Positions 1-46,863 of a stretch of 64,000 bases of DNA are shown here, piece by piece. A model generated the notes under the pieces. The model was not told the origin of the DNA. It saw only the letters and a program-made list of their open reading frames with translations, and searched no databases. Source of the DNA: a virus. The DNA is taken from IMG/VR virus record IMGVR_UViG_3300042894_005670. The stretch is one strand, 5' to 3'. The position numbers and the translations under genes were made by a program. Within the stretch, counting starts at the first letter, position 1. Each line of letters opens with the position of its first letter.

Positions 1-35
1 ATGCCATGTGGTTTGCCTTGAGGTGGAGTTCATGA
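1..35 (+). CDS. 3' end of an LRW-array ORF (...AMWFALRWSS*), truncated by window edge
   Basis: gcc atg tgg ttt gcc ttg agg tgg agt tca tga (3-35); 1-24 is identical to 2435-2458. Confidence 0.8.
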   Translation, partial: AMWFALRWSS

Positions 36-457
36 TAAAATGGTTAAAACAACAGTATAAAGCGTGGAAAGATCGACGTTTCCTAAAACGTCACGGTTGT
101 AGAGATTGGGAAGAATACCACTATTGTTACGATCCAGACCGAAACATTCGTTGTACTAGGGTAAAAGACTACTATCATGGTTATCCTTATTGGCATGTGT
201 TTGAAAGATCTAATCACTATTGTTATAAGTTACTCTATGATTACGGTCCGGGCGGACATCGTTGCGGCTATCACGATATAATCGATTGGTGCGAGGAAAA
301 TGCCAAAGGTAAACACAGAACAGATTTCTTGCGTGTGATAAAATATCCTAGCACAGGTAACGAATGGGAAATAAACGAATTTGTCGGAGGTGATCATATC
401 TTTGTGGCGTTCAAAGAAGAACGAGATTATTTAATGTTTGTGTTGAGGTGGTCATGA
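32..457 (+). CDS. LRW-array protein
   Basis: ATG overlapping the upstream TGA; IDWCEE motif; ends FKEERDYLMFVLRWS. Confidence 0.85.
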   Translation: MIKWLKQQYKAWKDRRFLKRHGCRDWEEYHYCYDPDRNIRCTRVKDYYHGYPYWHVFERSNHYCYKLLYDYGPGGHRCGYHDIIDWCEENAKGKHRTDFLRVIKYPSTGNEWEINEFVGGDHIFVAFKEERDYLMFVLRWS

Positions 458-711
458 CATATGATCTTGTGATCAGTCAAGAAGGGCCAGACGCTCATCC
501 TTTATACAGTGCCGTTAAGCACAGCATTGAATGGATAGGAAAAAAGCATCAAGTCAATAGTCCTATGGATTTGAAATATTTGACTGAAGAAGAATTTGAT
601 ATTAGAATTGAAGCAGTGGGATATCTAACTAATACATCAGGTAATTATAGATATAGGGTAAGTTTCCGTGATGAACGACATTATACTTGGTTTATATTGA
701 GGTGGTCATGA
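454..711 (+). CDS. LRW-array protein
   Basis: ATGA-coupled start; ends FRDERHYTWFILRWS. Confidence 0.85.
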   Translation: MTYDLVISQEGPDAHPLYSAVKHSIEWIGKKHQVNSPMDLKYLTEEEFDIRIEAVGYLTNTSGNYRYRVSFRDERHYTWFILRWS

Positions 712-935
712 TTGGTTTTTATTTAGAAAATTTTCTAATAAATTGTCCCATATATTGGCAAAACTTTGTAAAGGCCAATCAGGATAATCCTGATCATGAT
801 ACAGCATTAAGAATACTTAATAGAAAACTTAAGCCTTTTAAAGCAAGATATGTTCCCGCAAACTTTTGTGACCCCGATAAAGTTGTATTTGAAGATGAGC
901 ATAGCTTAAATTGGTTTATATTGAGGTGGTCATAA
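708..935 (+). CDS. LRW-array protein
   Basis: ATGA-coupled start; ends FEDEHSLNWFILRWS. Confidence 0.85.
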   Translation: MIGFYLENFLINCPIYWQNFVKANQDNPDHDTALRILNRKLKPFKARYVPANFCDPDKVVFEDEHSLNWFILRWS

Positions 936-1126
936 TGGGGATGGGGTATCCTGTAACTGTTGCATGTAGTAATATCATGGAAGTATCTGAACGACTAGAA
1001 TGGGCAGAAAAACATGGTATAAAACTACTGAATCGCACTTGGGTAGTTATCAATGAACGACAACATGTATCATTCTTTTTTGAAAAAGAAAAGGATGCTA
1101 CAATTTTTGCACTGAGGTGGTCATGA
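935..1126 (+). CDS. LRW-array protein
   Basis: TAATG-coupled start; ends FEKEKDATIFALRWS. Confidence 0.85.
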   Translation: MGMGYPVTVACSNIMEVSERLEWAEKHGIKLLNRTWVVINERQHVSFFFEKEKDATIFALRWS

Positions 1127-1335
1127 CCAAATTGCCCGACTACCCTTATCTTCAAAATATCGTATCTTATTATCGTAAGATGACCGATAACTCGAATGGA
1201 CCTTTATATCATGATGATTACATTACCTATCTAAAATCATTTGGATTTCGAGTTCCAATAGAATTTGGTACTCTTGAATTTCCTGATGATTTTTCAGAAA
1301 AGGATTTAATGATGTTCATATTGAGGTGGTCATGA
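1123..1335 (+). CDS. LRW-array protein
   Basis: ATGA-coupled; ends SEKDLMMFILRWS. Confidence 0.85.
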   Translation: MTKLPDYPYLQNIVSYYRKMTDNSNGPLYHDDYITYLKSFGFRVPIEFGTLEFPDDFSEKDLMMFILRWS

Positions 1336-1348
1336 GCAAAGTGTTTGC

Positions 1349-1558
1349 ATGATGAGACCACAAGATTTTGAACATCGTATAGAAATTGAACCTATATTGA
1401 CTAAAAGTCATGAAGATGCTATACATGAATGGTGTAGGCGACATTTAGGTAGATACGGTGAAACTTGGTATACCTATTACAGCCAACAAAGTCATAAAAT
1501 CATAGTATGTTTTCAGCATAGCCAAGATGCTGTTTGGTTTACTTTGAGATGGGCATAA
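1349..1558 (+). CDS. LRW-array protein
   Basis: HEWCRR motif; ends FQHSQDAVWFTLRWA. Confidence 0.85.
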   Translation: MMRPQDFEHRIEIEPILTKSHEDAIHEWCRRHLGRYGETWYTYYSQQSHKIIVCFQHSQDAVWFTLRWA

Positions 1559-1755
1559 TGTATACTCTTAACTTAGCTGAATTACCCGCTACCAAGTCTG
1601 TAGAATTTTTAGTATGGGTTTTTACTAATCAAATTGGAAATTATATGTCTCTGCTAGAATTAATAACCAAAGACATTAATTGGCATTATAAAACAAGTAT
1701 TCCTTTTGAATGCTCTGAACAAGAAGCAATATTGGTAATTTTGAGGTGGGCATGA
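1558..1755 (+). CDS. LRW-array protein
   Basis: TAATG-coupled; ends SEQEAILVILRWA. Confidence 0.8.
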   Translation: MYTLNLAELPATKSVEFLVWVFTNQIGNYMSLLELITKDINWHYKTSIPFECSEQEAILVILRWA

Positions 1756-2003
1756 AGCCAAGTGAATTACTGACCATAGCAGAAAAATATTGGCTTACAG
1801 ACTATGATCATAAAAAGCCTCTATCACCAAATACTCCCTTTGTCACCGGTGTGGCCCGTACTGATGCTATATTACATGACATGCTGATTAAACATGGTGT
1901 AGAACTGATATTGAAACAGAGTGGACATAGAAATTGGCAATTGGCTGATTACCGTGTAGTTGATGACAAAAAGTTTATGTGGTTCCTAATGAGGTGGTCA
2001 TAA
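1752..2003 (+). CDS. LRW-array protein
   Basis: ATGA-coupled; ends DDKKFMWFLMRWS. Confidence 0.85.
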   Translation: MKPSELLTIAEKYWLTDYDHKKPLSPNTPFVTGVARTDAILHDMLIKHGVELILKQSGHRNWQLADYRVVDDKKFMWFLMRWS

Positions 2004-2260
2004 TGACATATATAGATAATCCTAACATTTGGTATAATCTACAAATACATTTTAAAAATAATATCATGCCCGTCTTGGAGAATGATGATCAAGTTTGGGC
2101 GACAGCATTTAGGCGTTGGCTAAAAGAACAAGGTGCTGACATTGCGCAAGCACAGAACATACGCTACTTGCGTAATAGTTTACAAATAGCACCTCAATTT
2201 GATCAATTGGTATTTGAAAATGATAGAGATGCTACGATGTTTTTATTGAGGTGGTCGTGA
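2003..2260 (+). CDS. LRW-array protein (paralogue of 4626-4883)
   Basis: TAATG-coupled; FKNNIMP..WLKEQGA; ends FENDRDATMFLLRWS. Confidence 0.85.
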   Translation: MTYIDNPNIWYNLQIHFKNNIMPVLENDDQVWATAFRRWLKEQGADIAQAQNIRYLRNSLQIAPQFDQLVFENDRDATMFLLRWS

Positions 2261-2469
2261 TGGCTCTACATACAGTTGTTTATCATAGACTTGAACCTGG
2301 TATGTTGGCAGGACATATTCGCAGTCTATTAGACTATAATGTAGATCGTTGGTTGGAAGAAAATTGTCAGGGACGCTATTATCACAATCCTGGTTGGACA
2401 GATACAAAGTATATTCAATTCGAAGATAGCAGAGATGCCATGTGGTTTGCCTTGAGGTATGGACGATGA
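2260..2469 (+). CDS. LRW-array protein
   Basis: TGATG-coupled; ends FEDSRDAMWFALRYGR. Confidence 0.85.
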   Translation: MALHTVVYHRLEPGMLAGHIRSLLDYNVDRWLEENCQGRYYHNPGWTDTKYIQFEDSRDAMWFALRYGR

Positions 2470-2696
2470 ATAGATTGGTTTGTTTACCTGCTGATTGGGG
2501 GCCTGTGCAAAAAGCTGCTGTTTGGTTAAGGGAACATTTGGACATACCTGATTATGAAACAATAGAAAGTCAATTTGAAGAATATTTTAATTGTAAGGTT
2601 ATAAGGGATCCACCACATGATGTAGTCTATGGTAAAATATATGCTGTATTTGAGTGTGAGCAAGATGCTAATTGGTTTATATTGAGGTGGTCATGA
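2466..2696 (+). CDS. LRW-array protein
   Basis: ATGA-coupled; ends FECEQDANWFILRWS. Confidence 0.85.
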   Translation: MNRLVCLPADWGPVQKAAVWLREHLDIPDYETIESQFEEYFNCKVIRDPPHDVVYGKIYAVFECEQDANWFILRWS

Positions 2697-3037
2697 AAAT
2701 ACAGCGAATACAGAAATTTGAAGATGGTCAAAAGATATATGTGTTAGGCTCGGTTACTACACTTTCATTTCGTCAATATATGGATCAATACTCAGATTCA
2801 ACTGTATGGAGTAGAGAACATCAGGCACATCATGCTATTAAACGACTCATAAAACTAGAATACAGTGAATTATATCAATGGTTATGCAGTCAAGATTGTC
2901 AAACAACCAATTGGATTGATGATAGAATATTTTCACTACCATATCAATTCAGTGCTCAAATCAATTTATTTGATTGGGGTATAGGGTTCAGGTCAAATGA
3001 TCCCAAAGAAACTTTGTTTATATTGAAGTGGCAATGA
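2693..3037 (+). CDS. LRW-array protein
   Basis: ATGA-coupled; ends KETLFILKWQ. Confidence 0.8.
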   Translation: MKIQRIQKFEDGQKIYVLGSVTTLSFRQYMDQYSDSTVWSREHQAHHAIKRLIKLEYSELYQWLCSQDCQTTNWIDDRIFSLPYQFSAQINLFDWGIGFRSNDPKETLFILKWQ

Positions 3038-3273
3038 ATTATAATAGTAAATTTGATCAATATCATATGAAAATTACTGATAATTATATTACGGTAAATC
3101 GTAATAAACTCGATATTGTTGAAGCTATAAAGTGGGTTAAAAAGAATTGCCCACACTATATAACAAATCAATATCACGGTAATTATCATGGCAATGATCT
3201 TATTGATTTCTTTTTTTTAGACAAGCCAAAAGCTAAAGAAGAGATGACAATGTTTATTTTAAAATGGGCATAA
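3034..3273 (+). CDS. LRW-array protein
   Basis: ATGA-coupled; ends EEMTMFILKWA. Confidence 0.8.
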   Translation: MNYNSKFDQYHMKITDNYITVNRNKLDIVEAIKWVKKNCPHYITNQYHGNYHGNDLIDFFFLDKPKAKEEMTMFILKWA

Positions 3274-3521
3274 TGATTAATTTTGATAGTCCATTTAAAA
3301 AAGAATGGGAAGAACAATTAAAATGGTTGGATGAAACTATACAAAGAAATTATACCAATGATGGTAGACCATTCAATAAAAGTACAGTGGCTCAATTTTT
3401 AGAATGGCGCAGTATGGATAAAGAAACATGGAAGTTTAGAATACAAGGATTGCCTCCTACACTTATAGTTACTTTTAAAGACCCTGAACATGAATTCTTA
3501 TATAATTTAAGATGGAGATAA
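3273..3521 (+). CDS. LRW-array protein
   Basis: TAATG-coupled; ends FKDPEHEFLYNLRWR. Confidence 0.8.
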   Translation: MINFDSPFKKEWEEQLKWLDETIQRNYTNDGRPFNKSTVAQFLEWRSMDKETWKFRIQGLPPTLIVTFKDPEHEFLYNLRWR

Positions 3522-3522
3522 A

Positions 3523-3744
3523 TTGGCTATTGATGTAATCATTGAAGGAAAAGAGTTATCACAATATATTGACATTGTGCGTGAACTACGTGCCTCAGGA
3601 TTAAATCAAGGAGAACATTTTGATTTTAAATACATTCCATCAGTATATGATTACGAAAAATATAGAATTACTCCAAAAAAAGTTATCTTTACATTTTATG
3701 ATGAACAATACTCTACATTATTTCGTTTAAAATATGAATCCTAA
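3523..3744 (+). CDS. LRW-array protein (divergent)
   Basis: TTG start after GGAG; ends FYDEQYSTLFRLKYES. Confidence 0.75.
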   Translation: MAIDVIIEGKELSQYIDIVRELRASGLNQGEHFDFKYIPSVYDYEKYRITPKKVIFTFYDEQYSTLFRLKYES

Positions 3745-3919
3745 ATATCCGTATATTGCATCTATTTGTCCTCCTGATGGTGGTAAACGTGGTTGGTATG
3801 ATGTAATATCGTGGTGCCATGAAAAGATAGGTGCCACACATTCTCAATATGTAGGTGAAGGTGTTTTTGCATTTGAAAATGAAAGTGATTATATGATGTT
3901 TATATTGAGGTGGACATAG
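3734..3919 (+). CDS. LRW-array protein
   Basis: ISWCHE motif; ends FENESDYMMFILRWT. Confidence 0.85.
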   Translation: MNPKYPYIASICPPDGGKRGWYDVISWCHEKIGATHSQYVGEGVFAFENESDYMMFILRWT

Positions 3920-3920
3920 A

Positions 3921-4160
3921 TTGAATACTAAGGAATGTCAATGTTTTGAATGTCTCAAACCAAATTTTACCAAGTTTGTCAGCACCTTTATCGTATGTGA
4001 CACCTGTGGTAACAAACGTTGCCCACACGCTACTGATCATAGATTAGGATGCACCAACAGCAATGACCCAGGACAACTTGGCAGCAGATACGGTGTCTAC
4101 CCACACCCATCTATAGAGTTATTAGATTTTTTGGATGCTGCCAATGAAGATAAAGAATAA
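3921..4160 (+). CDS. Cys/His-rich small protein (putative Zn-binding) inserted in the array
   Basis: CQCFEC...CDTCGNKRCPHATDHRLGC; TTG start after the junction RBS. Confidence 0.75.
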   Translation: MNTKECQCFECLKPNFTKFVSTFIVCDTCGNKRCPHATDHRLGCTNSNDPGQLGSRYGVYPHPSIELLDFLDAANEDKE

Positions 4161-4377
4161 TCATTTACCACGTAATGGAGAATATGAAATATTTACTACC
4201 CAAGGACGCACTTATTGTTTTGATGATCCATCGTTAGAAGTCATGCAAGCACCTAATGAAATGTTTGAATGGTTAAGAAATATGCCAAGAGAACTATGTA
4301 GACCACTAGATCATACTAATGTTGCATTTTATCTAACTCCTGAAATGTATACCTTGTGGAAAATTACTTGGTTATGA
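4144..4377 (+). CDS. Array protein, divergent C-terminus
   Basis: ends FYLTPEMYTLWKITWL. Confidence 0.7.
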   Translation: MKIKNNHLPRNGEYEIFTTQGRTYCFDDPSLEVMQAPNEMFEWLRNMPRELCRPLDHTNVAFYLTPEMYTLWKITWL

Positions 4378-4381
4378 TATA

Positions 4382-4591
4382 ATGATGAGAAGACTTAAAA
4401 AAGAAATTTGGCCTTATAAAATTACAGTGAATTATCCTGCTGATTCTCAAATTATTGATATTGAATTATGGTTAATTGAAAAGTTTGGTGAAAGAAGAAA
4501 TAAGTGGAATGTAGTTTATGGTTTTTATAAGTCTGATTTTTACTTTAAAGAAGAATCTATGCTAACATTTTTTGCAATGCGATGGAACTAA
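4382..4591 (+). CDS. LRW-array protein
   Basis: ends FKEESMLTFFAMRWN. Confidence 0.8.
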   Translation: MMRRLKKEIWPYKITVNYPADSQIIDIELWLIEKFGERRNKWNVVYGFYKSDFYFKEESMLTFFAMRWN

Positions 4592-4625
4592 CATATAGTC
4601 AAATAGTATCTTATTTGAGGTGGTC

Positions 4626-4883
4626 ATGAAATATATACAGGATTCTGACCTGTGGTATACACTACAGGTATATTTTAAAAATAATATCATGCCCAACTTG
4701 GTGAATGATGATAAAGTTTGGGCACATGAATTTAGACGATGGCTTAAAGAACAAGGTGCTGAAATTGAGCATTTAATGAACCAACGATTAGTGCGTAATA
4801 GTTTAGGTATAGCACCCCACTATGATAAATTGGTCTTTGAGGATGAACAAAGGTTAGCTTGGTTTGTGTTGAGGTGGTCATAA
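4626..4883 (+). CDS. LRW-array protein (paralogue of 2003-2260)
   Basis: ends FEDEQRLAWFVLRWS. Confidence 0.85.
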   Translation: MKYIQDSDLWYTLQVYFKNNIMPNLVNDDKVWAHEFRRWLKEQGAEIEHLMNQRLVRNSLGIAPHYDKLVFEDEQRLAWFVLRWS

Positions 4884-4929
4884 AATTAAAAAATTAATTA
4901 AAATTAACGGTAAACACTATAATGACTAC

Positions 4930-5256
4930 ATGCCATGTGGCTTAAACATTATAGAAAAACTTTGGTGGTGGTTGGTTCCAGGTGTTCTTGTCAAAGTAAA
5001 ATGGCCCAAGGGTATGATCACAGTAGATCATAATGACCCACGTTGGTTTGATTGTGGTGGTGCAGTATGGGTAACCTACGAAAGCACTGATCCTAATGAT
5101 CATTATCGCCCATGGATGGAAGCAAATATTGGTAAACAAAAGTGGGATTGGGATTGGGGATTTGTAGGCAATGATGTTTCAGATAACTGTTTAACCATTA
5201 AAGTTAGACAAAATAAGGCAGAGTATGCTACAATGATGATTATGATGTGGGGATAG
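4930..5256 (+). CDS. Array protein, Trp-rich
   Basis: ends YATMMIMMWG. Confidence 0.7.
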   Translation: MPCGLNIIEKLWWWLVPGVLVKVKWPKGMITVDHNDPRWFDCGGAVWVTYESTDPNDHYRPWMEANIGKQKWDWDWGFVGNDVSDNCLTIKVRQNKAEYATMMIMMWG

Positions 5257-5257
5257 T

Positions 5258-5632
5258 ATGCGAATAAAACCTTTTCAATCACGATATGCAGTAACTTGGG
5301 ATGAATATCCTACAGGTATTTCCAACCCTAATGGTAAAGTGAAGATGGTAAATTGGTGTATCAAAAACTTAAAATTAGATTATATTACTTTGGGGTTTTA
5401 CGCATATGACCCAAATGGGTTTTACGAACATAATCCACCAAATGCTGTAAATTCTTGGATGTTAATTAATTTATCAAATGATATTTTGATAACAACAGAA
5501 GACGATGTTCATTTAAAATTATTAGACCATGGATCACTAAAAGCAATCATACTTGATGATTACAGCAAAGCATGCGAATTAGCAGATTATGTTGATCAAA
5601 TTCATACATTTAATATAATTAAAAGATACTGA
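5258..5632 (+). CDS. Hypothetical protein
   Basis: 124-aa ORF abutting its neighbours. Confidence 0.7.
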   Translation: MRIKPFQSRYAVTWDEYPTGISNPNGKVKMVNWCIKNLKLDYITLGFYAYDPNGFYEHNPPNAVNSWMLINLSNDILITTEDDVHLKLLDHGSLKAIILDDYSKACELADYVDQIHTFNIIKRY

Positions 5633-5633
5633 C

Positions 5634-5825
5634 ATGAGAACCGCACTTTTTCAGCGTGAATTCACCGTAAAGGAGGTAGGTCCTATTAGTGATTTTTTAA
5701 AACAATGTAGGAAAATGATGGGACAACCTTCACCTCAAACATGGGTGTTTCATGGAAATTATCATAAAATTGTTTTATATATTTATGACGATAAGTATGC
5801 CACATGGTTTAGTTTAAGGTATTGA
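5634..5825 (+). CDS. LRW-array protein
   Basis: ends IYDDKYATWFSLRY. Confidence 0.75.
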   Translation: MRTALFQREFTVKEVGPISDFLKQCRKMMGQPSPQTWVFHGNYHKIVLYIYDDKYATWFSLRY

Positions 5826-5826: not shown

Positions 5827-6105
5827 ATGGAAACTATAATTTTTAAGCGTGAAAGTGATAAGTTTGATGATATTATTAAAGATACTAATATCAAACCATT
5901 TTTGCTTACTGTCTTAACATGGAAAGAACATTGTTTTATTCAACTTAAACCTTTAAAAGGCGTTGAAAAAATTATTAGTTATATTGGTTTAAAGTATGGT
6001 GATAGTGTATTAAAGCAACCATTGACTAAGGATTACACACCGATAGATGGAGTGGATTACCGTTCGGGGGTTCCTGAACATCTAAAAGGCCAACGGCGAA
6101 GGTAG
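5827..6105 (+). CDS. Hypothetical protein
   Basis: 92-aa ORF after AAGG. Confidence 0.65.
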   Translation: METIIFKRESDKFDDIIKDTNIKPFLLTVLTWKEHCFIQLKPLKGVEKIISYIGLKYGDSVLKQPLTKDYTPIDGVDYRSGVPEHLKGQRRR

Positions 6106-6206
6106 GACCGTACCAAGCCATTAAAAGACAAAATATAGAATAGTCAATATAAAAATTGGCAACGGAATCAAATATTTTGTTCATTGTTTATTTATGTAAA
6201 TATTAT

Positions 6207-6752
6207 ATGAAACACTTATATGTATATATTAAAGATTTTTTAACGATAAATCAATGTCAAGATATTATTGAAACTTATCATAAAAATGACAAGAATTTAT
6301 TTTTAGATTCTCCTACTTTTTGGAAACATTGTTCAACTAAGATATTATCACCACAGCATTTAGGCAGTTATGCTAGTATGATTGAAGATAAGGTTGCTTG
6401 TGTTAATCAAGATGTTTTTGGTTTTGATTTGTTTGCTAAACAGTATAACTTATTTCATTTAAACACGTATGAGGGTAAAGATAACCATAACTATGACTTG
6501 CATATAGATGCGGTAACAGGATCACCAAAAGATATGAAGTTAACAGTTATAATTAACTTAACTCAAGGCGATTATACAGGTGGAGAATTTACATTTCCTC
6601 CATTAGGTTATGAAGGTAGTATACAAGAATTTGATAGAAGTACAGGATGTATGTTAGTATTTCCATCTTTTATCGCACATAAAGTAAATAGTGTGACAAG
6701 CGGTAAAAGAACTACGCTTGTTACATGGTTTGAAGGACCAAATTGGAAATAA
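6207..6752 (+). CDS. 2OG-Fe(II) oxygenase (PKHD/prolyl-hydroxylase-like)
   Basis: LHID, YTGGEF, VFPSFIAHKV..VTSGKR.TLVTW motifs. Confidence 0.85.
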   Translation: MKHLYVYIKDFLTINQCQDIIETYHKNDKNLFLDSPTFWKHCSTKILSPQHLGSYASMIEDKVACVNQDVFGFDLFAKQYNLFHLNTYEGKDNHNYDLHIDAVTGSPKDMKLTVIINLTQGDYTGGEFTFPPLGYEGSIQEFDRSTGCMLVFPSFIAHKVNSVTSGKRTTLVTWFEGPNWK

Positions 6753-8510: not shown

Positions 8511-9506
8511 TTATACCTCAGTTAAGTTATTTTTAAATATATTCCAAGCTTCTTCCCAACTATAACTTAGGCTTTCAAGCTCTACATTTTGTCTATTTAA
8601 TGTTAAACATTCTGTTATAGATAATTTTAAATTTTCTCGTAAGTATCCTGTAACACCATGTTTTACAACGTCTAGTGGTCCTTGACATGGATATGCTGCG
8701 ACAGGTGTACCACATGCCATGGCTTCAATCATTACAATACCAAATGTTTCCCAACGACTAGGAAATACAAATACATCAGCATTAGCGTAATATGTTGCTA
8801 AATCTGCCCCTGTTTTGAAACCTACAAATTCTACATCGGGATATTTTTGTTCTAATTCTGCACGATAGGGTCCATCTCCGACTAGTATTTTTTTTGCATG
8901 GAAATAGTTTAATGAACAAAAATCATCTAAATTTTTTTCTTTACTTATTCTACTTACACACAATAAATTAAGTTGATCATTTGTTTTTGTTCTTAAAGTT
9001 GATTTAAATATGGATCTATCAACTCCTCTAGTCCATGGTATAATATCACTTTTTAGACCTTTTTCTTTAAGTTGTTTTACCATAGACTCTGTAGTAGTTA
9101 AAACTTTTCCTGTATGTTTATGAAACCATTTTATGTATTTCCAAGTAATTGATTCGGGTAGTCCTAAAAGAGTTTTAAGTCCTTCAGGAAATTTAGTATG
9201 ATAAGCAGTATTGTACCTAAAATCATGTTTTGTAAGATATGCTCTAGCCCACAGACCCACAGGACCCTCTGTTGCGATATGGATATGATTCGGATTGATC
9301 TCCTCAATCTTCTCGCCCATCTGCCTTGGTAAGGCAATCTTGACTTCGTTATATAGAGGGCAATCAATGTAGCTGAACTCATCGGGAGTAATATAAACAA
9401 AATGATAACCATCCCGAATCGCATACGTTTCAATATTTTTGTAAGTGGTAACAACCCCATTAATTTGATCATGTAAATTATCTGTTACTATTAGTATTTT
9501 TTTCAC
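8511..9506 (-). CDS. GT4 glycosyltransferase (Agt-like glycolipid synthase candidate)
   Basis: NGVVTT, HIATEGPVG, YHTKFPE, DVFVFPSRWETFGIVMIEAMACGTPV. Confidence 0.9.
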   Translation of the reverse strand: MKKILIVTDNLHDQINGVVTTYKNIETYAIRDGYHFVYITPDEFSYIDCPLYNEVKIALPRQMGEKIEEINPNHIHIATEGPVGLWARAYLTKHDFRYNTAYHTKFPEGLKTLLGLPESITWKYIKWFHKHTGKVLTTTESMVKQLKEKGLKSDIIPWTRGVDRSIFKSTLRTKTNDQLNLLCVSRISKEKNLDDFCSLNYFHAKKILVGDGPYRAELEQKYPDVEFVGFKTGADLATYYANADVFVFPSRWETFGIVMIEAMACGTPVAAYPCQGPLDVVKHGVTGYLRENLKLSITECLTLNRQNVELESLSYSWEEAWNIFKNNLTEV

Positions 9507-9663
9507 ATTTTCCCTCTACTTTAAACCACGGAAATTTAACCCAATGTGCCATTGTTTGTAATGCGTGTTCACAACTAGCTTGATCTTTAAATTGAAGCTG
9601 TATGCGGCCTGGGATATCGGTTGGATCATACGTATTAACTACTATCAGAAATAACATCCACAT
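9478..9663 (-). CDS. Small hypothetical protein
   Basis: MWMLFLIVV start after AGGA; two Cys. Confidence 0.55.
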   Translation of the reverse strand: MWMLFLIVVNTYDPTDIPGRIQLQFKDQASCEHALQTMAHWVKFPWFKVEGKCEKNTNSNR

Positions 9664-10411
9664 AATCGTCCTTTGTATAGGGCCAATAAACAATTTCCCA
9701 TTTTCCATCATCGTGTTCGACTAACGCAGTGCAACTTTCTACCCAATCACCATCGTTCATATATATTATTCCGTTAATGTCTTTGATTTCTGCGTGATGG
9801 ATATGACCACAAATAACTCCATGATACCCACGCTTAGAACAATAAATAGCCAAATTATTCTCAAATCTAAAGATAAAATCCACTGCTCGTTTGACTCTGC
9901 GTTTAAGATATTGACTAAGACTCCAATAACCGAACCCAAAACGGTGCCTAATACGATTAAATGTGGTATTAAGAGATAAAACAATGTCATAAGCTTTGTC
10001 ACCTAAAAAACTTATCCATGGTGCTAATCTTGTTATGCCATCAAATAAATCACCATGTATAACCAAGTATTTTTTACCATCAATACCAATATGTTCAATT
10101 TGATTACATATTTTTATTCTCCCAAAATTTAAACCATATGGAATTAGTGGTCGTAAAAATTCATCATGATTACCTGATATGTAATATACTTGTGAACCAC
10201 GCTTAGCATGGCCTAAAATTCTTCGAATGACATTAGTATGTGATTGTTTCCAAAACCATTTATTTTGCTGTATTTTCCATCCATCTATAATGTCACCAAT
10301 AAGATAGATATATTCAGCAGAATTATTTTTTAAAAAACTAGATAAATTGTCTGCTTTACAACCTTTGCTTCCTAAATGAGTATCACTAATAAATATAGAT
10401 CTATATTTCAT
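9635..10411 (-). CDS. LpxH-like metallophosphoesterase (PlcP-type phospholipase C candidate)
   Basis: ISDTHLG, GDIIDGW, GNHDE, HGD, CGHIH, NDGDWVES motifs; adjacent to GT4. Confidence 0.88.
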   Translation of the reverse strand: MKYRSIFISDTHLGSKGCKADNLSSFLKNNSAEYIYLIGDIIDGWKIQQNKWFWKQSHTNVIRRILGHAKRGSQVYYISGNHDEFLRPLIPYGLNFGRIKICNQIEHIGIDGKKYLVIHGDLFDGITRLAPWISFLGDKAYDIVLSLNTTFNRIRHRFGFGYWSLSQYLKRRVKRAVDFIFRFENNLAIYCSKRGYHGVICGHIHHAEIKDINGIIYMNDGDWVESCTALVEHDDGKWEIVYWPYTKDDYVDVISDSS

Positions 10412-10475: not shown

Positions 10476-10493
10476 ATTACAGTTGTATTACTT
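10476..10493 (-). promoter_or_regulatory. Putative Pho box upstream of the PlcP-like gene
   Basis: minus strand AAGTAAT-ACAA-CTGTAAT, an 11-bp-periodic direct repeat like the PhoB consensus. Confidence 0.5.
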
Positions 10494-11495
10494 AATTTGA
10501 CTCCATACTTTTGTACGTATGTCGTTTTGTAGTTTATCAGGTAAGTGTACATAGTCAAGTTCTTCACTTAATTTCTTACCATTTTTAAATGCCCAATCAA
10601 AAAACTTTAATACGTCTTGACTTGCTTTTTTGTCTGCAGGATCTTTATACATAATAATAAAGCTTGCTGTTGTGACAGGCCAAGTATCCTTGCCACCCTG
10701 ATTTACAATACTCAGGCCCATTCCTGGAACTGAGAACCAATCTGCCCCCGCTGCGGCTGCTGCGAAAGTTGTATCATCAGGGTCAACAAAGTTACCTGCC
10801 TTGTTTTGTAGTTTCATATAATTCATGTTATTTTTCTTAACATAAGCATATTCAACATATCCGATTGCACCTTTTACTCTATTTACATTGGCAGCAACAC
10901 CCTCATTACCTTTTCCACCAACTGAAGAATTTGCTGGCCACTTAACGGCTGAACCTTTGCCTACTTTTTCTTTCCATGCAGGACTTACTTCAGTAAGATA
11001 ATCTGTCCAATTAAAGGTGGTACCACTACCATCAGCACGATGTACTACGGTAATATTTAAATCAGGTAATTTTTTACCTTGATTTAATGCACTGATTTTT
11101 GGATCGTTCCATTTCGTGATATCCCCCATAAAAATTTCTGCAAGGATAGGTCCTGTGATGCGAAGTTCACCTGCTTTAAACCCTTCAAGATTGATAACAG
11201 GTACTGTACCACCAATGATAACAGGGAATTGAATTTGTCCATTTTTATCTAAATCCTCACCTTTAACGGGTGCATCTGTTGCACCAAATGTAACAGTTTT
11301 TGAATTAATTTGGCGAATACCACCTGAACTACCTATACTTTGATAGTTTAGTTGTATACCACTTACTTTGTTATAGGCTTCTGCCCATTTTGCATAGATA
11401 GGATAAGGGAATGTTGCCCCTGCTCCTGTGATAGTTTGTGCATTGACGCTCAAACTAATTGTTACTGCTGCTATAAAACTTAAAATTTTCTTCAT
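10488..11495 (-). CDS. pstS: Phosphate ABC transporter substrate-binding protein PstS
   Basis: signal peptide; GAGATFPYP, YQSIGSSGG, HRADGSGTT, GAIGYVE. Confidence 0.96.
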   Translation of the reverse strand: MKKILSFIAAVTISLSVNAQTITGAGATFPYPIYAKWAEAYNKVSGIQLNYQSIGSSGGIRQINSKTVTFGATDAPVKGEDLDKNGQIQFPVIIGGTVPVINLEGFKAGELRITGPILAEIFMGDITKWNDPKISALNQGKKLPDLNITVVHRADGSGTTFNWTDYLTEVSPAWKEKVGKGSAVKWPANSSVGGKGNEGVAANVNRVKGAIGYVEYAYVKKNNMNYMKLQNKAGNFVDPDDTTFAAAAAGADWFSVPGMGLSIVNQGGKDTWPVTTASFIIMYKDPADKKASQDVLKFFDWAFKNGKKLSEELDYVHLPDKLQNDIRTKVWSQIK

Positions 11496-11512
11496 TTATA
11501 TTCCTTTTAAAA

Positions 11513-13717
11513 TTAATAACCAATAATTCCACCATCTTTTCTTGTAATAACAAGAGTTGCGCTACGTGGGCGACCTGTTACTCCATACCCTGCATTTCCA
11601 GGCCACTGACTTTGTGGAGCTGATCCTGTCCAAAATGACGCAGTAGTGTCCTCGCCAGGATGTTGAACGTTAACAAAAATTGTACGACCATCAGCAGACT
11701 CAGCGATTCCTGTTATCTCACAACCTGCAGGACCTGTCAAGAATCTACGCAATTTAGTTTCACCTAATTCTGCACCTACAAAGGTGTTTTGATCTTTTGT
11801 TGCCCCACTTAATGTATTAGTAATTGTTACAGATTTACCATCACCGACTTGGCCTGGGATGGCGACAAGCAGTTGATTATGTACTTCATCTGTGTAGGCA
11901 CCATCATCCGTTTGAATCCAACAAAGTCCTGTAGCTTTACTGAACCATAAACCATCAGGGCTACTGAATGAATTTTTAGCTGTTAATTTACTAACATTAC
12001 TTGCAGTATTATCTTCTTCTGATCCAAACAAGAAAATATCCCATACAAAACGTGAAGTTTCTTCACGAAAACGAATTATATGTCCATTAGGATTACCTGA
12101 GCCTTTTTTACCATCGGGATCAGCATATGAACGAGGATTTGCAGCATCTGTAGTGTTTGGCGTGCGATTTGAAGAGTTATTATTTGTTAGAGCAAAATAA
12201 ATCTCACCATTAGATGGATTTACTGCACCCCATTCAGGACGATCCATTTTTGTTGCACCAACTGCATCTGCTGCAATTCTTGTAAAGACATAAATTTCAG
12301 CTTGATTATTAAATTTAAATGTTGAGTAATTTGCAATGGCAGGATTAGAAATACTTAATTCCAACCAAACACCTGTCCCATCTGAATTAAATTTGGCAAC
12401 AAATAATTTTCCATCATTCATATATTTGTCACCTGCAGCAATTCCACCACCAAAATCAGCAGGATCCCAAGTTTTTGTACTAACCCATTTGTAAATATAT
12501 TCATTACGACTATCGCAACCCATATAAAAAGTTACAGGCTTTCCTGCTTCTAATTTACCATAGACACAAGCTTCATGTGCAGTACGCCCTAAAGCGATTC
12601 TTTTTACAGGTTGACTATTAGGTTGGGTAGGGTCAATTTCAATAATATACCCAAATGTATGTGGTTCATTACGAAAATCATCTTTGCCTGTAACACCTTT
12701 TACACTAACATCCCAACGACTAAATCTAAATTCAGTATCAGGCATATCTGTTACAGTATGCCAACCTTGTGTATTAGCTGAAGTTGCTGTTGCAGAAAGA
12801 GCAGCGTTACGAACTCCATAACGAGCACGAGTTTGTACTATACGTGCATCAGGAGCTACACTACCCTTTGGCATTGAAAAATATGTTGCCCAATTTTCTT
12901 CACAAGTTAAAAATGTTCCCCATGGTGTATAACCTGTACCACAATTGTTTAATGTACCACGACTTGTAGCACCTGTAGGATCATATTTGGTCTGTAACAA
13001 TGTTCTGATATTTGCTAATTCATTTGCAGGACCACTAATTTTCATTACAGTTTGTGGTGTAATTCTTCGATTATAATTACTATCAAGTTTATATGTCCAC
13101 CCGCTTGAGCCTTTATTAATTTCTACAATACTTACACCATGGTGGTTAATTTCTTTTAATGATTCTAAACCAAGACGAGAACCCAAGTCCCATTCACCAA
13201 ATTGGTCATATTTTTTACCACTTACCCCATTACTTGTTTGTCCATTTGGGTGAAAAAAGTGTGCATCTGATGAACTTTCATGATTCATACAAAGAAGTGC
13301 ACGATCAGTATAATTTTTTGTATATTTACCATTACTATCTAAGTGAAATAATTCTACTCCATCGTGATGATCACCTACACGTTTAGACCAATCATCTGTC
13401 TCCAATCCTTTATTGCTATAAGCTGCAATAGAACTACTCATACGGTCACCCGTAGCATGCAATATTGAATATTGATAGCCTTCGGGTAACGTAACTTTAT
13501 CTAAAATATTTTTCGGTACTGCATCAAACGACAATGACGTTGGTAAGTTAATACCATCATCTGTTGATGCACATGATGCCAAAGATGCACCTACCGCAGT
13601 TGTAAAAAACGCAGACCCTGTTTTAATGAATGATCTACGTGATTGATTTCCTAAAGATTCCTTAATAATATCATCTAAATGTTTGTTACTAGATGGGTTT
13701 TCATTTTCTATAAACAT
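11513..13717 (-). CDS. phoX: PhoX family alkaline phosphatase (Tat-exported)
   Basis: Tat motif SRRSFIK; NNCGTGYTPWGTFLTCEEN, GRTAHE, MDRPEW, SPDGL, CEITG, VQHPGE. Confidence 0.94.
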   Translation of the reverse strand: MFIENENPSSNKHLDDIIKESLGNQSRRSFIKTGSAFFTTAVGASLASCASTDDGINLPTSLSFDAVPKNILDKVTLPEGYQYSILHATGDRMSSSIAAYSNKGLETDDWSKRVGDHHDGVELFHLDSNGKYTKNYTDRALLCMNHESSSDAHFFHPNGQTSNGVSGKKYDQFGEWDLGSRLGLESLKEINHHGVSIVEINKGSSGWTYKLDSNYNRRITPQTVMKISGPANELANIRTLLQTKYDPTGATSRGTLNNCGTGYTPWGTFLTCEENWATYFSMPKGSVAPDARIVQTRARYGVRNAALSATATSANTQGWHTVTDMPDTEFRFSRWDVSVKGVTGKDDFRNEPHTFGYIIEIDPTQPNSQPVKRIALGRTAHEACVYGKLEAGKPVTFYMGCDSRNEYIYKWVSTKTWDPADFGGGIAAGDKYMNDGKLFVAKFNSDGTGVWLELSISNPAIANYSTFKFNNQAEIYVFTRIAADAVGATKMDRPEWGAVNPSNGEIYFALTNNNSSNRTPNTTDAANPRSYADPDGKKGSGNPNGHIIRFREETSRFVWDIFLFGSEEDNTASNVSKLTAKNSFSSPDGLWFSKATGLCWIQTDDGAYTDEVHNQLLVAIPGQVGDGKSVTITNTLSGATKDQNTFVGAELGETKLRRFLTGPAGCEITGIAESADGRTIFVNVQHPGEDTTASFWTGSAPQSQWPGNAGYGVTGRPRSATLVITRKDGGIIGY

Positions 13718-13768
13718 GTAATTTGGCTCCTTAATAAAACATATTTACAAAAATAGTAGCATATAATT

Positions 13769-13786
13769 ATTACAGAATTATTACAA
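13769..13786 (-). promoter_or_regulatory. Putative Pho box upstream of phoX-pstS
   Basis: minus strand TTGTAAT-AATT-CTGTAAT, ~50 bp upstream of the phoX ATG. Confidence 0.65.
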
Positions 13787-13997
13787 TTTTAAAATTAGGA
13801 TAGGTATAAATATTATTATAATTAAAGAATTATAATATGGCTAGTCCACCACCACATTATAGAGAGATCGTATTAATTGGTATATAGGTTAGTCAGGATC
13901 CATTTTGGGATATCTACACGCTTAGGCTAGCCTCACCTGAGGGATCGCACGAAGAGATTAAGAAGGCCAAAAATAATTGCTGTTAGGATCCTTAAAC

Positions 13998-15479
13998 CTA
14001 TTTTACATTGCACATTAAATTAATATAATCTTTATGATCAAGAACCATTAAATATTGTAATTGCATAGCAGCATTAGCACGATCTGCAACAACTTTGTTA
14101 TAATTCTCTCTATTTTTTTCAAATAAATTTTCTAAACTTTGTAAATTAATTAGGTTTAAACCTAGATAAATTTGGTAAAAATTAACAGCATAAAACATTA
14201 GATAACGGTTAGGAAAATATGACCAATGAAAATGCCCCTGCTGAAATTGGCTAATCGTAGCTTGATTAAAAGGTGTTAATTCAAATGGTCTATCTTTCCA
14301 AAATTCTGTATCATCTCGATTAACAAAATAATGAGCTTGTATATAACTTATAATATTGTCAAACGATTCAGAAAAAGTAGCGTTATACAAATTTTCAACA
14401 ATTTGATTATTAACTAACCATCCTTCTAGCATATCACTTAAGCCGTTTGCTTGTAATATAGTAAAACCAATACTTTGCGCTTCTAAAGGTTCTGCAAAAC
14501 TACCTGCTAAACCAATACTTATACAGTTTTTAGACCAAAATTTTTCTAACCTTCCCGCTGTGAATGGAATATCCTTGCCAACTTTTTCTACTTTTTTCTT
14601 TAATGACTTAGATAATTCGTTTAACGCTTCGTCAGCAGTAATATAGTTAGTATTAAAAACGTAACCATTTCCATAACGTTCTTGTGTGGGTATTTTCCAT
14701 GCCCATCCTGCACTTAATGCGGTGGCGGTGGTATATGGCTCGTAATTTTGATTTTTCTTAAACTCCGTAGGAAAAGCAATAGCTCGATTCATAGGCAAAT
14801 ATCGCTCATAACTTATCCATTTATTGTCTAATTCTTTACTGATTATACGATTCATACCGCTACAATCAACGAAAAAATCTCCACTTAATGTACTTTTATC
14901 TTCAAATTTTAGTGAACTAACATTGCCAAAATGATCTAAATCAACACTTTCTACATCATTTTCTAAAAAGGTAATTTGTCTTTCCATACATTTTTTAGTT
15001 AAAAACTCATTTAACGCAAACGTATCAAAATGGTACTGATTACCTACTAACAAGTTATTGTGTACAATTACCTTATGTTCACGGAAAATGTGAAATCCTG
15101 GCGAGACAGGAAACGGTGAATCCCTGTTGTTTAATGCTAAAAAGTTGTAGATATCCATACGGTTAAGACCTGAAAATTCCGCACCTCCGCCTACATTGTG
15201 ACAATATTCGTGACCTTTTCTTAACCAATCTTTAAATAAAATACCAATTTTTACGGTAGCTTTGGTTTCTTTTATCAGTTCATTTACGCTGATATTCACC
15301 AAATTCATAAAACCATTCCAATGTTCAGTACTACCCTCCCCTACACCGATAATACCAATTTTTGATGATTTCACAATTGTAATATTAATATGAGCAAATT
15401 TTTCACGCATAATTAGTGCAGTTACCAAACCTGCTGTACCTGCACCAACTATAACCATCTTGTTGATGTTAGCGATCAT
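13998..15479 (-). CDS. Tryptophan-halogenase-family flavin-dependent enzyme
   Basis: IVGAGTAG, IGVGEG, WAWKIP, FAEPLE. Confidence 0.9.
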   Translation of the reverse strand: MIANINKMVIVGAGTAGLVTALIMREKFAHINITIVKSSKIGIIGVGEGSTEHWNGFMNLVNISVNELIKETKATVKIGILFKDWLRKGHEYCHNVGGGAEFSGLNRMDIYNFLALNNRDSPFPVSPGFHIFREHKVIVHNNLLVGNQYHFDTFALNEFLTKKCMERQITFLENDVESVDLDHFGNVSSLKFEDKSTLSGDFFVDCSGMNRIISKELDNKWISYERYLPMNRAIAFPTEFKKNQNYEPYTTATALSAGWAWKIPTQERYGNGYVFNTNYITADEALNELSKSLKKKVEKVGKDIPFTAGRLEKFWSKNCISIGLAGSFAEPLEAQSIGFTILQANGLSDMLEGWLVNNQIVENLYNATFSESFDNIISYIQAHYFVNRDDTEFWKDRPFELTPFNQATISQFQQGHFHWSYFPNRYLMFYAVNFYQIYLGLNLINLQSLENLFEKNRENYNKVVADRANAAMQLQYLMVLDHKDYINLMCNVK

Positions 15480-16815: not shown

Positions 16816-19800
16816 ATGGCAATTGTACCTTCTGCAAGAACGATTATTAGTCCATTATCTGATCCTGCGCTTATGCGTAATGAAGTCATAGTATCAAGCG
16901 CAAACGGTCAGATTGCTATATTTCAAACGACAAAAGATATTTACGTTACATCTTATACTCAAGAGTATAATAATCAAAACATTATTAACCAAAACATAAC
17001 GTATGATATTGTAAATCAGCCTGGGAATACTACGTACGGGGTACAATATAATAACGGTGGATCGTTTGCGTCAGAAAGTGGATTTACCTTCAACCCAAAT
17101 ACTTTTACACTGAATGTACCTAATGTTGCTGTAACAGGTAATACAAACTTAGGTGATGTACTTAATATTACAATTTCAGGTGGTTCAGCTAATCAAGTTC
17201 TTACAACAGATGGTACAGGCAACGTTTATTGGCAAAGCCCAATCATCTATGGTAATGCTGAAGTAGCAAACTACTTACCAACCTATACAGGCAACTTAAA
17301 AGGTGGTAACGCAAATATTAGCGGTGAAATATTAGCCAATGCGTTAAATGTATCTTTTAATGTCAATGCATACACTGTTTCAGCTAATTTCATAGCGGGT
17401 GATGGTTCTAACTTAAGTAACTTACCATTGGTAAATAATGCTGCCAATGCTAATTATTCAAGTTATGCAAACGTAGCAAATACAGCAGGTACTGTAACAA
17501 CCAATGCTCAACCTAATATAACAAGTGTTGGTACATTAACAAGTTTAAGCGTAACAGGAAATATAACAGGTGGCAATGCAAACTTAGGTAATGCAATTAA
17601 TGCAAACTATTTTATTGGTGCAGGAAATAATTTATCTAATATTCAAGGTCCTAATGTAGCAGGGACTGTTGGTAATGCAAACTTATCTCAATACCTCAAT
17701 GTAAGTGATGTAAGTAATAATTACAGTTATCACGTGGTATTGAGTGCAGGATCAGGTGATAAAAGTCTGCACATTGATGCAGATGATAACCTACAATATA
17801 ACCCAAATAGTGGTTTACTAACTGCCGTTAGAATGGATGCTAGCATTTTTGTTGGTAATCTATACTACTCAAACGGTTATCCTGTTGCTAATGTTGTAGG
17901 TATTGGAAACATTGCAACAATTAATTTGGATGGTAATTCAAGCAATGTATTACTTGGTAATGGTACATTTGGCGATGTGCCAGGTATCAAGGCAGTTATA
18001 GCAAACGGTGATTCAAACGTAAAAATAGCAACAGCCAATGGCAATGTTACAGTTAGTGTAGCAGGTAGTCCAAATGTTGGTGTATTTGGAACAGATTCTT
18101 TAACTATATCTTCTAATATTTTTGCAGGTAATACAGTAAACGCAGCAAATATTGTAGGAAATGTTGGTAACTTTGCCAATGCTTTTGTACAAAGCACATT
18201 AACTGCAGTAAACATTACAGCAAATACAGGCATATTTACAGGTAATGGTGGTGGTTTAAGCAATCTTGCAGGTGCGAATGTTACCGGCACTGTAGCAAAT
18301 GCTAATTACGCAGTGTATGCAAATCATGCTGCTTACGCTAATGTGGCTAATAGTGCGTTAAGTGTTAATGTAGCAAACGTTGCAAACATTGGTAATGTAG
18401 CAACGCTAAATTTAAATGGTAATGGCTCAACATTTTTGGGTGGTAATGGCTCATGGTTAGTACCAATGGGATTGGTACAGTCAACCAATGTAGTTACAAC
18501 GTCTAACGTATCTAATGGATATGGTTCTGCTTATTATAATATTTCATTTAATAACAATACGAGTGCAGTATTAAATGTAGAATTTCAGCTACCATTAAAT
18601 TTTGATAGTAGCAACAGCAATGTATTATATGGTAATGGAGCGTTTGCTCCAAGTTACGGTAATAGTAACGTTTCAACATATTTAAATAGTTTAGGTAGTA
18701 ATAATATTACTACCTCAGGCAATGTCACTGCAACAAATCTCACAGCAACTACTCAAGTTAAAACCCCATTAATTATATCAGGTAATAATGGCACTGACGG
18801 TAACAGTTTAACCATTGAAGCAAGTGATGCGGCAGCACCAAGTGGTAATGGTGGTAATTTAATTTTACGAGCAGGCACAGCAGGCTTTAGCGGTGTAGGT
18901 GGAGCTGTGTTTGTTGGACCAACAAATACTAGCGCAGTGTACCTTGGGGGTGGGCCTGGGTATGGGACAGCAGTGCCTGTGACGATACCTGGGAATTTGA
19001 CGGTAAATGGTAATATAGGTACAACTAATCTCAACGTAAACGGCGTTAACGCAACTACATTAACAGGTACATTAACAACTAATGCTCAACCTAATATTAC
19101 TTCAGTTGGAAACTTAACATCACTTATTGTAACAGGTAATACTACGGTTGGTAATTTAATTGGTCCTGTAGCCAATGGTAATACTAATTTAAATATTCCT
19201 GCTGCAGGTGGTAACCTAAACATTAGCGCAGAAGGTAATGCTAATATATTAGTCGTAACAGGCACAGGTGTAAATGTAGCAGGTACTTTAAATGCAACAG
19301 GTAACGCAAACGTAGGCAACTTAGGTACAGGTGGGTTAATTACTGCTACAGGTAATATAACAGGTGGTAATTTAATTACTGCGGGTACTATAAATGCATC
19401 AGGAGGTAACTTAGCTTCTAACTCATCAGTACAAACATATTATGATGGCGGCGCAGAAAATGGTGTTATAAGTTTTAATAAAGGTGGTTTTATTACAACA
19501 ACCACTTATGGTCTTACATTAAACACAGGTGGTACAAATCAAAATATTGTTCTTAGCCCAAGTGGTTATGTAAACATTTTATCAAATGTGTTAGCAGGTA
19601 ATATTCAGTCGAATGGGCAAATTGTAGCTAATAGTAACATTTCAGGTTTAAATTTATCCACAGCAGGTAATGTCAATGCAAATGGAAATATCAGCGCAGC
19701 TAATATTTCAGCTTCAGGAGCATTAAGTGTAACAGGTAATGCTGTAATTAGTGGTAACTTAACAGTCAATGGTAATATTACTTACATTAACGTTACAGAA

Positions 19801-45660: not shown

Positions 45661-45736
45661 TGGAGCGGATGGTGGGAGTCGAACCCATCTATTGAGGTTT
45701 GGAAGACCGCCGTGTAACCACAAACACTTCACCCGC
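45661..45736 (-). tRNA. tRNA-Gly(TCC)
   Basis: cloverleaf, loop CTTCCAA, GTTCGA, CCA. Confidence 0.9.
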
Positions 45737-45741
45737 ATATT

Positions 45742-45816
45742 TGGTAGCGGGAGATGGAATTGCACCACCGATCTTCAGCTTATGAGACTGACGAGTTTCT
45801 ACTTCTCTATCCCGCA
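45742..45816 (-). tRNA. tRNA-Met(CAT), initiator-like
   Basis: TGCGGG..CCCGCTACCA with unpaired 1:72; loop CTCATAA; atypical T-loop. Confidence 0.8.
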
Positions 45817-45834
45817 ATTGTACTTTTATTTAGT

Positions 45835-45924
45835 TGGTGCGAATGGTCGGAGTCGAACCGACATGCCCCTTTCGGAAGCGAGGGATTTTAAGTCCCTTGT
45901 GTCTACCTATTTCACCACACTCGC
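45835..45924 (-). tRNA. tRNA-Leu(TAA)
   Basis: long variable arm; loop CTTAAAA; CCA. Confidence 0.92.
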
Positions 45925-46860: not shown

Positions 46861-46863
46861 TAA

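Follow-up and report, generated by a model that had tools for sequence, protein, structure and literature searches.

The first 5,825 nucleotides (nt) of the IMG/VR virus record IMGVR_UViG_3300042894_005670 (64,000 nt, the whole of this stretch being called the window below) are filled by a run of small genes that end in much the same way, and the question is how such a run is expressed and how its content changes. It is probably a hyperplastic, translationally coupled array of paralogues, reshuffled by ordinary homologous recombination at a linker that lies within coding sequence. The feature itself is real, has solid statistical support and occurs widely among large uncultured phages from aquatic habitats.

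A junction inside the reading frame

Open reading frame (ORF) calls for positions 1–5825 gave 23 back-to-back small genes of 61–141 amino acids (aa), all on the plus strand in 32–5825, preceded at the window edge (1–38) by the last 12 codons of a further unit. About 20 of the genes have the ending F-x-L-R-W followed by a single residue; more strictly, [LMI]-[RKT]-W plus one residue closes seventeen of them, while LRY, LKY and MMW are found at the end of others. The original prediction, made from the sequence alone, of more than 20 consecutive small ORFs with a common C-terminal motif is borne out by this count. It also had the array continuing past the left edge; the partial unit is the sole evidence of this in the window, and about ten more units are found there in a close relative. 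Boundaries between the genes are mostly stop-start overlaps, either of 4 nt (ATGA) or of 1 nt (TAATG, TGATG). The products are mostly mildly acidic, with a median isoelectric point of 6.3.

The boundaries share nucleotide sequence. Exact repeats of 23–25 nt at 687, 911 and 2672 and of 24 nt at 1 and 2435 are present where they had been predicted. The 9-mer TTGAGGTGG has 11 copies on the plus strand of the first 6 kb and none on either strand of the other 58 kb. A longer, 27-nt repeat (Table 1) comprises the C-terminal codons of a unit, GAGGTG and the overlapping start of the next unit. Leu-Arg-Trp-Ser-stop is encoded as TTG AGG TGG TCA TGA, in which GAGGTGG is 5 nt before the stop-overlapping ATG and the last sense codon ends in the A of that ATG. 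All three of the functions that had been proposed for this junction – C-terminal codons, a GAGGTG like a Shine-Dalgarno (SD) sequence, and an overlapping start – are legible in it. GAGGTGG is most simply read as the SD of the next gene. A standard SD is read by the host ribosome, as other genes in the window have AAGGAG-type ribosome-binding sites. A stop-start overlap and an SD-like sequence 5–9 nt upstream, inside the preceding gene, the two sequence features expected of translational coupling, are both found. This geometry is read directly from the sequence and has the support of codon bias, and together they suggest that translation of neighboring units is coupled.

Codon choice in the motif is far from that of the surrounding genes. 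The motif Arg is AGG in 13 of 16 window units, while the AGG share of all Arg codons is 7.6% across 21 large genes and 10.7% across the array gene bodies; the motif Leu is mostly TTG (background 13–20%). The 177 non-redundant units from all loci show the same preference: 107 of their 144 motif Arg codons are AGG (background 9%), and 104 of their 167 motif Leu codons are TTG (background 23%). In a tally of 162 units, the preference was tied to the presence of a nearby start: AGG was used for 79 of 103 Arg when an ATG sits 2 or 5 nt past the Trp codon, and for 8 of 20 without an ATG in the vicinity (Fisher p 0.002). At the junction, the nucleotide sequence itself is under constraint, which agrees with the earlier reading of the AGG preference as acting at the DNA or RNA level. 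Arg-to-Lys or -Thr and Trp-to-Tyr variants of the motif also occur; since they are tolerated though they break the SD, selection acts at both the protein and the nucleotide level.

Turnover of whole units and its likely mechanism

Two close relatives, L005 (a near-identical IMG/VR contig of 93 kb, rated 26% complete; 92–98% nt identity) and L006 (88–97%), have array backbones collinear with the window save for whole-unit insertions or deletions (indels) and replacements at junctions. The window units in 935–1335 are missing in both, with breakpoints at the flanking junctions. In L005, two other units take the place of four (1752–2696), and an extra non-family gene directly follows the junction at window 3919. 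L006 is without seven units (1558–3273) and without 3921–4377; the crossover behind this seven-unit difference lies inside a 12-nt identity (window 1547–1558 and 3262–3273). Per-unit identity between the window and L005 is a mosaic, jumping between 92 and 100%, as expected if variants swap blocks.

In four independent lineages – the window set and three more sets of close relatives – 21 indel or replacement events were identified. Of their boundaries, 77 of 84 are at most 25 nt from a stop codon, versus about 22% under a uniform spread. For at least eight events the alignments overlap by 18–52 nt in the short allele, and the long allele has the junction as a direct repeat flanking the insert; between L023 and L031, for example, a perfect 21-mer stands on either side of a 691-nt insert. 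This same 21-mer has 16 occurrences in 11 loci and recurs between lineages that are otherwise no more than 75–80% identical. Order varies as well: eight full-length reciprocal best hits between the window and L001, a more distant relative, run in the order 4,5,3,7,2,1,8,6. Insertion, deletion and reordering of whole units at junctions, which the original prediction had, are all seen among relatives, together with replacement, and the comparison of order and content with breakpoint mapping gave the opposite of fixed synteny with breakpoints away from junctions. The array is a tandem multigene family in the usual sense, with adjacent homologous units whose number and order vary between close relatives.

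Some events were imprecise and left footprints: the orphan junction at 4612–4626, the mini-ORF at 1332–1352, and an 11-nt duplication in L006. This last is a tandem duplication within a junction (L006 8560–8590) where two window units are missing, and resembles a recombination scar. Fused or partly duplicated units are also present in databases (P0134, P0015).

The proposed mechanism begins with the architecture, one co-directional run of more than 20 tandem paralogues, mostly of about 60–85 aa, with no intergenic room for promoters or terminators. The ribosome-binding site and the start of each unit would lie in the last codons of the one before, giving translational coupling. The same 15–27 nt, repeated at every boundary, would double as a short homology patch, and unequal or inter-genome homologous recombination between patches would add, remove, replace and reorder whole units. 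Because of the triple role of the one stretch, any recombinant would stay expressed, with every unit still translated after the exchange. The driver may be RecA/UvsX-type machinery of the phage itself, with no site-specific recombinase. A RecA-like gene is present in three of five relative records, including the complete genome (352 kb) of a more distant IMG/VR relative.

A dedicated machinery behind the gene-cassette system that had been proposed is not supported. No PF00589 tyrosine recombinase was found in the complete 352-kb relative, the 93-kb L005 contig or three other relatives, while 14 of 14 control genomes were positive; the 64 kb of the window itself was only partly scanned by Pfam, and this integrase negative rests on the five relatives. 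Serine recombinases or resolvases were absent from the complete relative and four partial relatives. The junctions have neither attC-like nor other local inverted repeats, nor hairpins; the nine inverted pairs that were found are each at least 554 nt apart. General homologous recombination between repeats is enough. The favored mechanism is ordinary homologous recombination, or replication slippage, between short repeats, because the crossover point varies within the repeat.

Several observations weigh against this explanation. Non-family genes in these regions likewise have some indels whose ends coincide with stop-start overlaps to the base, and selection for intact abutting genes would by itself retain only boundary-exact indels. 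As every boundary carries the repeat and the genes abut, an exact deletion of a unit will always seem to have the repeat at its ends, and the breakpoint pattern is strong but is no proof that the repeat is the substrate. Several units have Lys or Thr for Arg and so no good SD, and the coupling signal is not universal. Further, of the 93 Ile, Ala and Val codons that directly precede the motif Leu, 82 have a purine in third position, well above expectation (ATA 36 vs ATT 5 for Ile; GCA/GCG 29 vs GCT/GCC 5 for Ala), as in the x(-3) codons at window 694–696, 918–920 and 2679–2681, for example; the SD and the start overlap give no obvious account of this preference. The boundary-exact indels of nearby non-family genes would also fit a plain tandem expansion of paralogues, in which the C-terminus is kept for the protein only, the junction has no role in recombination, illegitimate indels fall anywhere and selection retains the intact genes. 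The same can be said of the protein-level conservation of F-x-L-[RK]-W, in which Arg/Lys and Trp/Tyr changes are conservative, of the purifying selection on the units, and of the distant homologs in Pseudomonas jumbo phage PA5oct, which are dispersed single genes without the junction. Plain expansion is unlikely all the same: the extreme codon bias of the junction is tied to the overlapping start, so the DNA itself is constrained. Many of the indels are exact: 18–52 nt of the repeat flank the insert on either side in the long allele, and the short allele keeps a single hybrid copy. Recombination between repeats produces this pattern; illegitimate events would be expected to leave scars more often. 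Nor would plain expansion be expected to leave an identical 21-mer in lineages that are only 75–80% identical or less.

Promoterless, co-oriented small genes with a repeated boundary sequence also bring to mind an integron-like dedicated system, in which an unrecognized phage recombinase or nuclease would excise units as circles and insert them at other junctions, also between co-infecting phages. It would accommodate nucleotide conservation beyond the SD (the upstream purine preference and the common 21-mer), the insertion of non-family genes exactly at junctions (window 3921–4160; L005 8726–8995), and the HNH endonuclease genes found near the array in L001. The lack of a tyrosine or serine recombinase in the complete relative or four partial ones and of inverted repeats or hairpins at junctions makes it very unlikely. 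The crossover moreover varies within the repeat, with overlaps of 12–52 nt, as in homologous exchange, and exchange of this kind has a T4-type precedent without a special enzyme (PMC2839356). It is a rather doubtful proposition, too, that the junction is the recognition site of a further phage function that mobilizes single units, as circles or by copy-and-paste, within or between co-infecting jumbo phages. If true, it would make the array a 'translational integron', recombinase-independent or with a novel enzyme, whose C-terminal protein motif is shaped by the needs of a DNA element.

Recombination at a coding linker has partial parallels in several known systems. Operons of bacteria and phages have translational coupling at ATGA or TAATG overlaps with an SD inside the upstream gene, and the array likewise has a GAGG core about 5 nt before the stop-overlapping ATG; it differs in that the SD is encoded by a conserved protein motif at every paralogue boundary, the same bases serving both. 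Tandem multigene families in large viruses grow and shrink by unequal crossing-over ('genomic accordions'). The array resembles these in its tandem paralogues and in a copy number that varies between close relatives, but its units are diverged, mostly 20–30% identical, and not recent identical copies. With integrons it has in common co-oriented promoterless small genes, a repeated boundary element and content that varies between relatives, while both defining features of integrons are missing: an IntI-type integrase (in five relatives) and attC-like imperfect inverted repeats. The array boundary is instead a 15–27 nt direct repeat within coding sequence.

The closest likeness is to the promoter-early stem-loop (PeSL) cassettes in the hyperplastic regions of T4-type phages (Arbiol et al. 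2010, PMC2839356; Comeau et al. 2014, PMC4122927). PeSLs are intergenic promoter and terminator elements that give each ORFan its own transcript (PMC2839356, PMC4122927). The phage's own homologous recombination has been proposed for their exchange, patches of less than 50 bp being enough and no dedicated recombinase being involved (PMC2839356), and mini-circles have been demonstrated (PMC2839356, PMC4122927). In both cases small non-essential genes of a large virulent phage are bounded by a short conserved sequence, close relatives differ by whole genes gained, lost or exchanged with ends in that sequence, and no dedicated recombinase is invoked. In the array, however, there is no spacer with a sigma-70-like promoter and stem-loop terminator. 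A search for PeSL-type elements found no spacer at all, the genes overlapping by 1–4 nt; promoter-like sites numbered 46 (38.1 +/- 6.2 in shuffles) and terminator-like sites 5 (2.4 +/- 1.6 in shuffles), none of the latter at a junction. The repeat in the array is coding sequence plus SD plus overlapping start, and the unit of autonomy is translational. Its genes are paralogues of one family, unlike the unrelated ORFans of PeSLs. In its working the array resembles PeSL cassettes, without being a member of that kind.

Short conserved flanks of exchangeable modules are also known as the 'linker' sequences of Botstein and Campbell and from the T-even internal-protein loci (PMC2839356). There, as here, flanking sequence positions each module for expression; the linker of the array differs in being inside the reading frame and common to more than 20 adjacent modules. 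In cyanophage S-PM2, the 'ORFanage' consists of 33 small co-oriented genes in 9.5 kb that are dispensable in culture and have poorly conserved metagenomic synteny (Puxty et al. 2015, PMC4503421). Many of its boundaries have a common short stop-start overlap sequence, as in the array, but the junction sequence is another one. In this region (L054, Synechococcus phage S-PM2, 5786–15739), the upstream Asn-Asp-stop and the next Met-Thr are encoded by the same 8–9 bases, an analogous coding junction. The ORFanage was considered as the same family and rejected, as no S-PM2 ORF matches the family profile.

What is new here is the coding-linker version of a known plasticity mechanism, joined to a large unnamed protein family. 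One short stretch would be at once a structural part of a protein, the expression signal of the next gene and a homology patch for gene swapping, and would give very large phages a concrete sequence-level means of keeping a fast-turnover arsenal of small proteins. The PeSL or 'linker' idea of modular phage evolution would then cover translational as well as transcriptional units, and uncultured jumbo phages as well as T4-type coliphages.

The protein family

A family profile was built from database proteins only, independently of the window, and was tested on 24 window genes. It matched 18 of them at E < 0.001 and four more at E < 0.01, with about half of the units aligning over the whole domain. 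In order, the alignment has a Trp-bearing helix (often W-C/L-x-E-N-x-G), a Trp after the next loop, an F-x-F aromatic strand, and last, at the C-terminal end, D/E-A-x-x-F-x-L-R-W. The units are diverged paralogues, mostly 20–30% identical, in which similarity persists only at the junction. An exhaustive profile search of 1.84 billion cluster representatives (clusters at 50% identity) gave 1,510 matches at E <= 0.001, nearly all of 56–150 aa with the match reaching the C-terminus. Two long top matches, P0008 and P0084, were dropped: they are a helicase and an ankyrin-repeat protein in which only a short helical stretch aligned.

AlphaFold2 models of two units, 3734–3916 (mean predicted local distance difference test, pLDDT, 85) and 3523–3741 (94.6), have a beta-alpha-beta...beta-alpha core in common, though the two are only 16% identical and the second has an extra hairpin. 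As two dissimilar units have the same core order, the 'variable N-termini' of the units are diverged forms of one small domain, at times with insertions or an N-terminal extension. The dissimilarity of the N-termini that had been noted thus stands as far as sequence divergence goes, but the N-termini are not unrelated, about half of the units aligning over the whole domain and the two models having the same core. Structure prediction, which had been suggested as a check for a common fold, yielded an identical predicted core for both units. The idea of a docking helix attached to variable specificity domains is not supported, the conserved C-terminal helix being part of one small domain that is shared from end to end. 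The units are predicted to share a generic ferredoxin-like beta-alpha-beta...alpha domain. Its conserved hydrophobic core would consist of the Trp in helix 1, the aromatic strand residues and the F-x-L-R-W in the last helix, with surfaces and insertions that vary. The products would most likely serve as a diversifying group of binding proteins, produced along with the nucleotide-metabolism genes that lie upstream.

Nothing usable came from Pfam, PHROGs and NCBIfam scans of the window units and 25 database members; the sole match to a named family, Gp23, was from the N-terminal piece of one member. P0024 and an ESM Atlas cluster have such a piece, which matches the profile of the T4 Gp23 major capsid protein in part and is joined to the family domain; this fusion is probably a recombination chimera. 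A profile search of PDB sequences returned rows at chance level only, and Foldseek against PDB returned nothing at E <= 0.001 for either AlphaFold2 model. The best VIA-align Z scores, 6.2 and 6.9, are inside the tool's stated background and were to generic ferredoxin-like, ACT or RRM-type folds; the ACT domain 5v0s_B was among the matches of both models, with Z within background. A BFVD search returned only uncharacterized proteins of uncultured phages, and the ESM Atlas only viral hypothetical clusters. Searches of 50,697 records of isolate phages, by megablast with the array and by tblastn with three family members, gave no match. This is a large family, of about 1,500 clusters at 50% identity, without a name in Pfam, PHROGs or NCBIfam.

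The units are under purifying selection, with a pooled ratio of non-synonymous to synonymous polymorphism (pN/pS) of 0.34 against L005 and 0.21 against L006. The array genes are real, as shown by pN/pS, the 1,510 family clusters and two confident models with a common core.

Array features and genome neighborhood

Table 1. Features of the array and its surroundings, with distant family members in PA5oct. Coordinates are those of the window unless a locus is named; E values are for the family profile.
Feature	Coordinates	Strand	Length (aa)	E value	Remarks
27-nt direct-repeat family	431-4883	+			13 copies, 74-100% identity, each ending on a unit's stop codon
Tail of cut-off family unit	1-38	+			Stop overlaps ATG at 32; bases 1-24 identical to 2435-2458
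Unit	32-457	+	141	9.9e-12	Cys/His-rich N-terminal extension plus family domain; canonical junction; orthologs P0054 and one unit in L010
Unit	454-711	+	85	5.8e-8	Canonical junction; 76% identity to L001 10001-10258; missing in L006
Unit	708-935	+	75	3.8e-7	TAATG-type junction; found in L005 and L006
Unit	935-1126	+	63	1.1e-13	Only in the window among window, L005 and L006
Unit	1123-1335	+	70	2.5e-5	Only in the window among window, L005 and L006
Six-codon mini-ORF between two units	1332-1352	+			Start and stop each overlap a neighbor; not in L005 or L006; probably the scar of a deleted unit
Unit	1349-1558	+	69	1.8e-17	
Unit	1558-1755	+	65	0.007	Not in L006
Unit	1752-2003	+		0.0098	
Unit	2003-2260	+		1.5e-9	
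Unit	2260-2469	+		1.2e-7	
Unit	2466-2696	+		5.9e-8	
Unit	2693-3037	+	114	0.008	Lys for Arg; junction SD weakened
Unit	3034-3273	+	79	1.9e-8	Lys for Arg; junction SD weakened
Unit	3273-3521	+		2.5e-6	
Unit	3523-3744	+		1.7e-4	AlphaFold2-modeled
Unit	3734-3919	+		7.5e-14	AlphaFold2-modeled
Cys-rich small non-family gene within array	3921-4160	+			No match to family profile or Pfam; missing in L006 together with the next unit
Unit-like gene	4135-4377	+	80	0.13	Ends I-T-W-L; marginal membership, probably outside the family; reciprocal best hit of L001 8392-8649
Unit	4382-4591	+	69	7.4e-19	Top profile match of the array
Orphan 15-nt junction copy	4612-4626	+			Lies in a 34-nt spacer and is not part of any intact unit upstream; provides SD-like sequence and ATG for 4626-4883
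Unit	4626-4883	+	85	9.2e-7	Recent paralogue of 2003-2260 (78% nt identity)
Trp-rich unit	4930-5256	+	108	2.1e-4	Most widely conserved unit of the array: 49 related loci in IMG/VR; orthologs carry canonical C-terminal motif
Weak family member	5258-5632	+		0.0072	
Final gene of the array	5634-5825	+		7.6e-6	Ends LRY
Right neighbor, non-family	5827-6105				No match to family profile
PA5oct gp237	L057 1882-2097				
PA5oct gp210	L058 1049-1306				
PA5oct gp209	L058 1467-1688				

The region belongs to an uncultured aquatic jumbo phage, probably of about 350 kb. Of the 15 family matches in the complete relative (352 kb), 14 are in one 4.3-kb array. The array of L005 has about 30 units and starts directly after a dCMP deaminase gene. 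The replication genes are closest to those of the jumbo phages PA5oct and Atu_ph07: the DnaB helicase of a related contig has 53% identity to that of PA5oct and 51% to that of Agrobacterium phage Atu_ph07. PA5oct encodes three dispersed, distant family members (gp209, gp210 and gp237), two of them close to its dCMP deaminase, a gene that the L005 array has as its neighbor too; these end in L-x-F or L-x-H, and the junction is absent. The PA5oct omics paper does not mention the three homologs. As PA5oct can be cultivated, these members open the function of the family to tests there.

The rest of the window encodes PhoX, a PstS-like protein, a tryptophan halogenase, a 2OG-Fe(II) oxygenase, a Bax1-I-family membrane protein and an endolysin. 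Auxiliary genes beside the array turn over too. The 2OG-Fe(II) oxygenase (6156–6752) is missing in L006, and a GT4 glycosyltransferase and a metallophosphoesterase (8511–10411, minus strand) are missing in L005 as a 1,980-nt indel. An auxiliary metabolic block at 10488–15479 (minus strand) encodes the PstS-like phosphate-binding protein, PhoX, the tryptophan halogenase and a DUF6445 protein; the PhoX alkaline phosphatase has 43% identity to one in an Acinetobacter phage record. On the plus strand, 16816–25878 encodes a 3,020-aa ORF without a PHROG match, after which come a virion-structural-like protein and one with a lectin fold (Laminin_G_3). The region 45661–57023 (minus strand) has 18 tRNA genes in several clusters with small ORFs between them, and is adjoined by a gene for a DUF2828/DUF7788 protein (43009–44391, minus strand; PHROG 850, 'RNA-binding protein').

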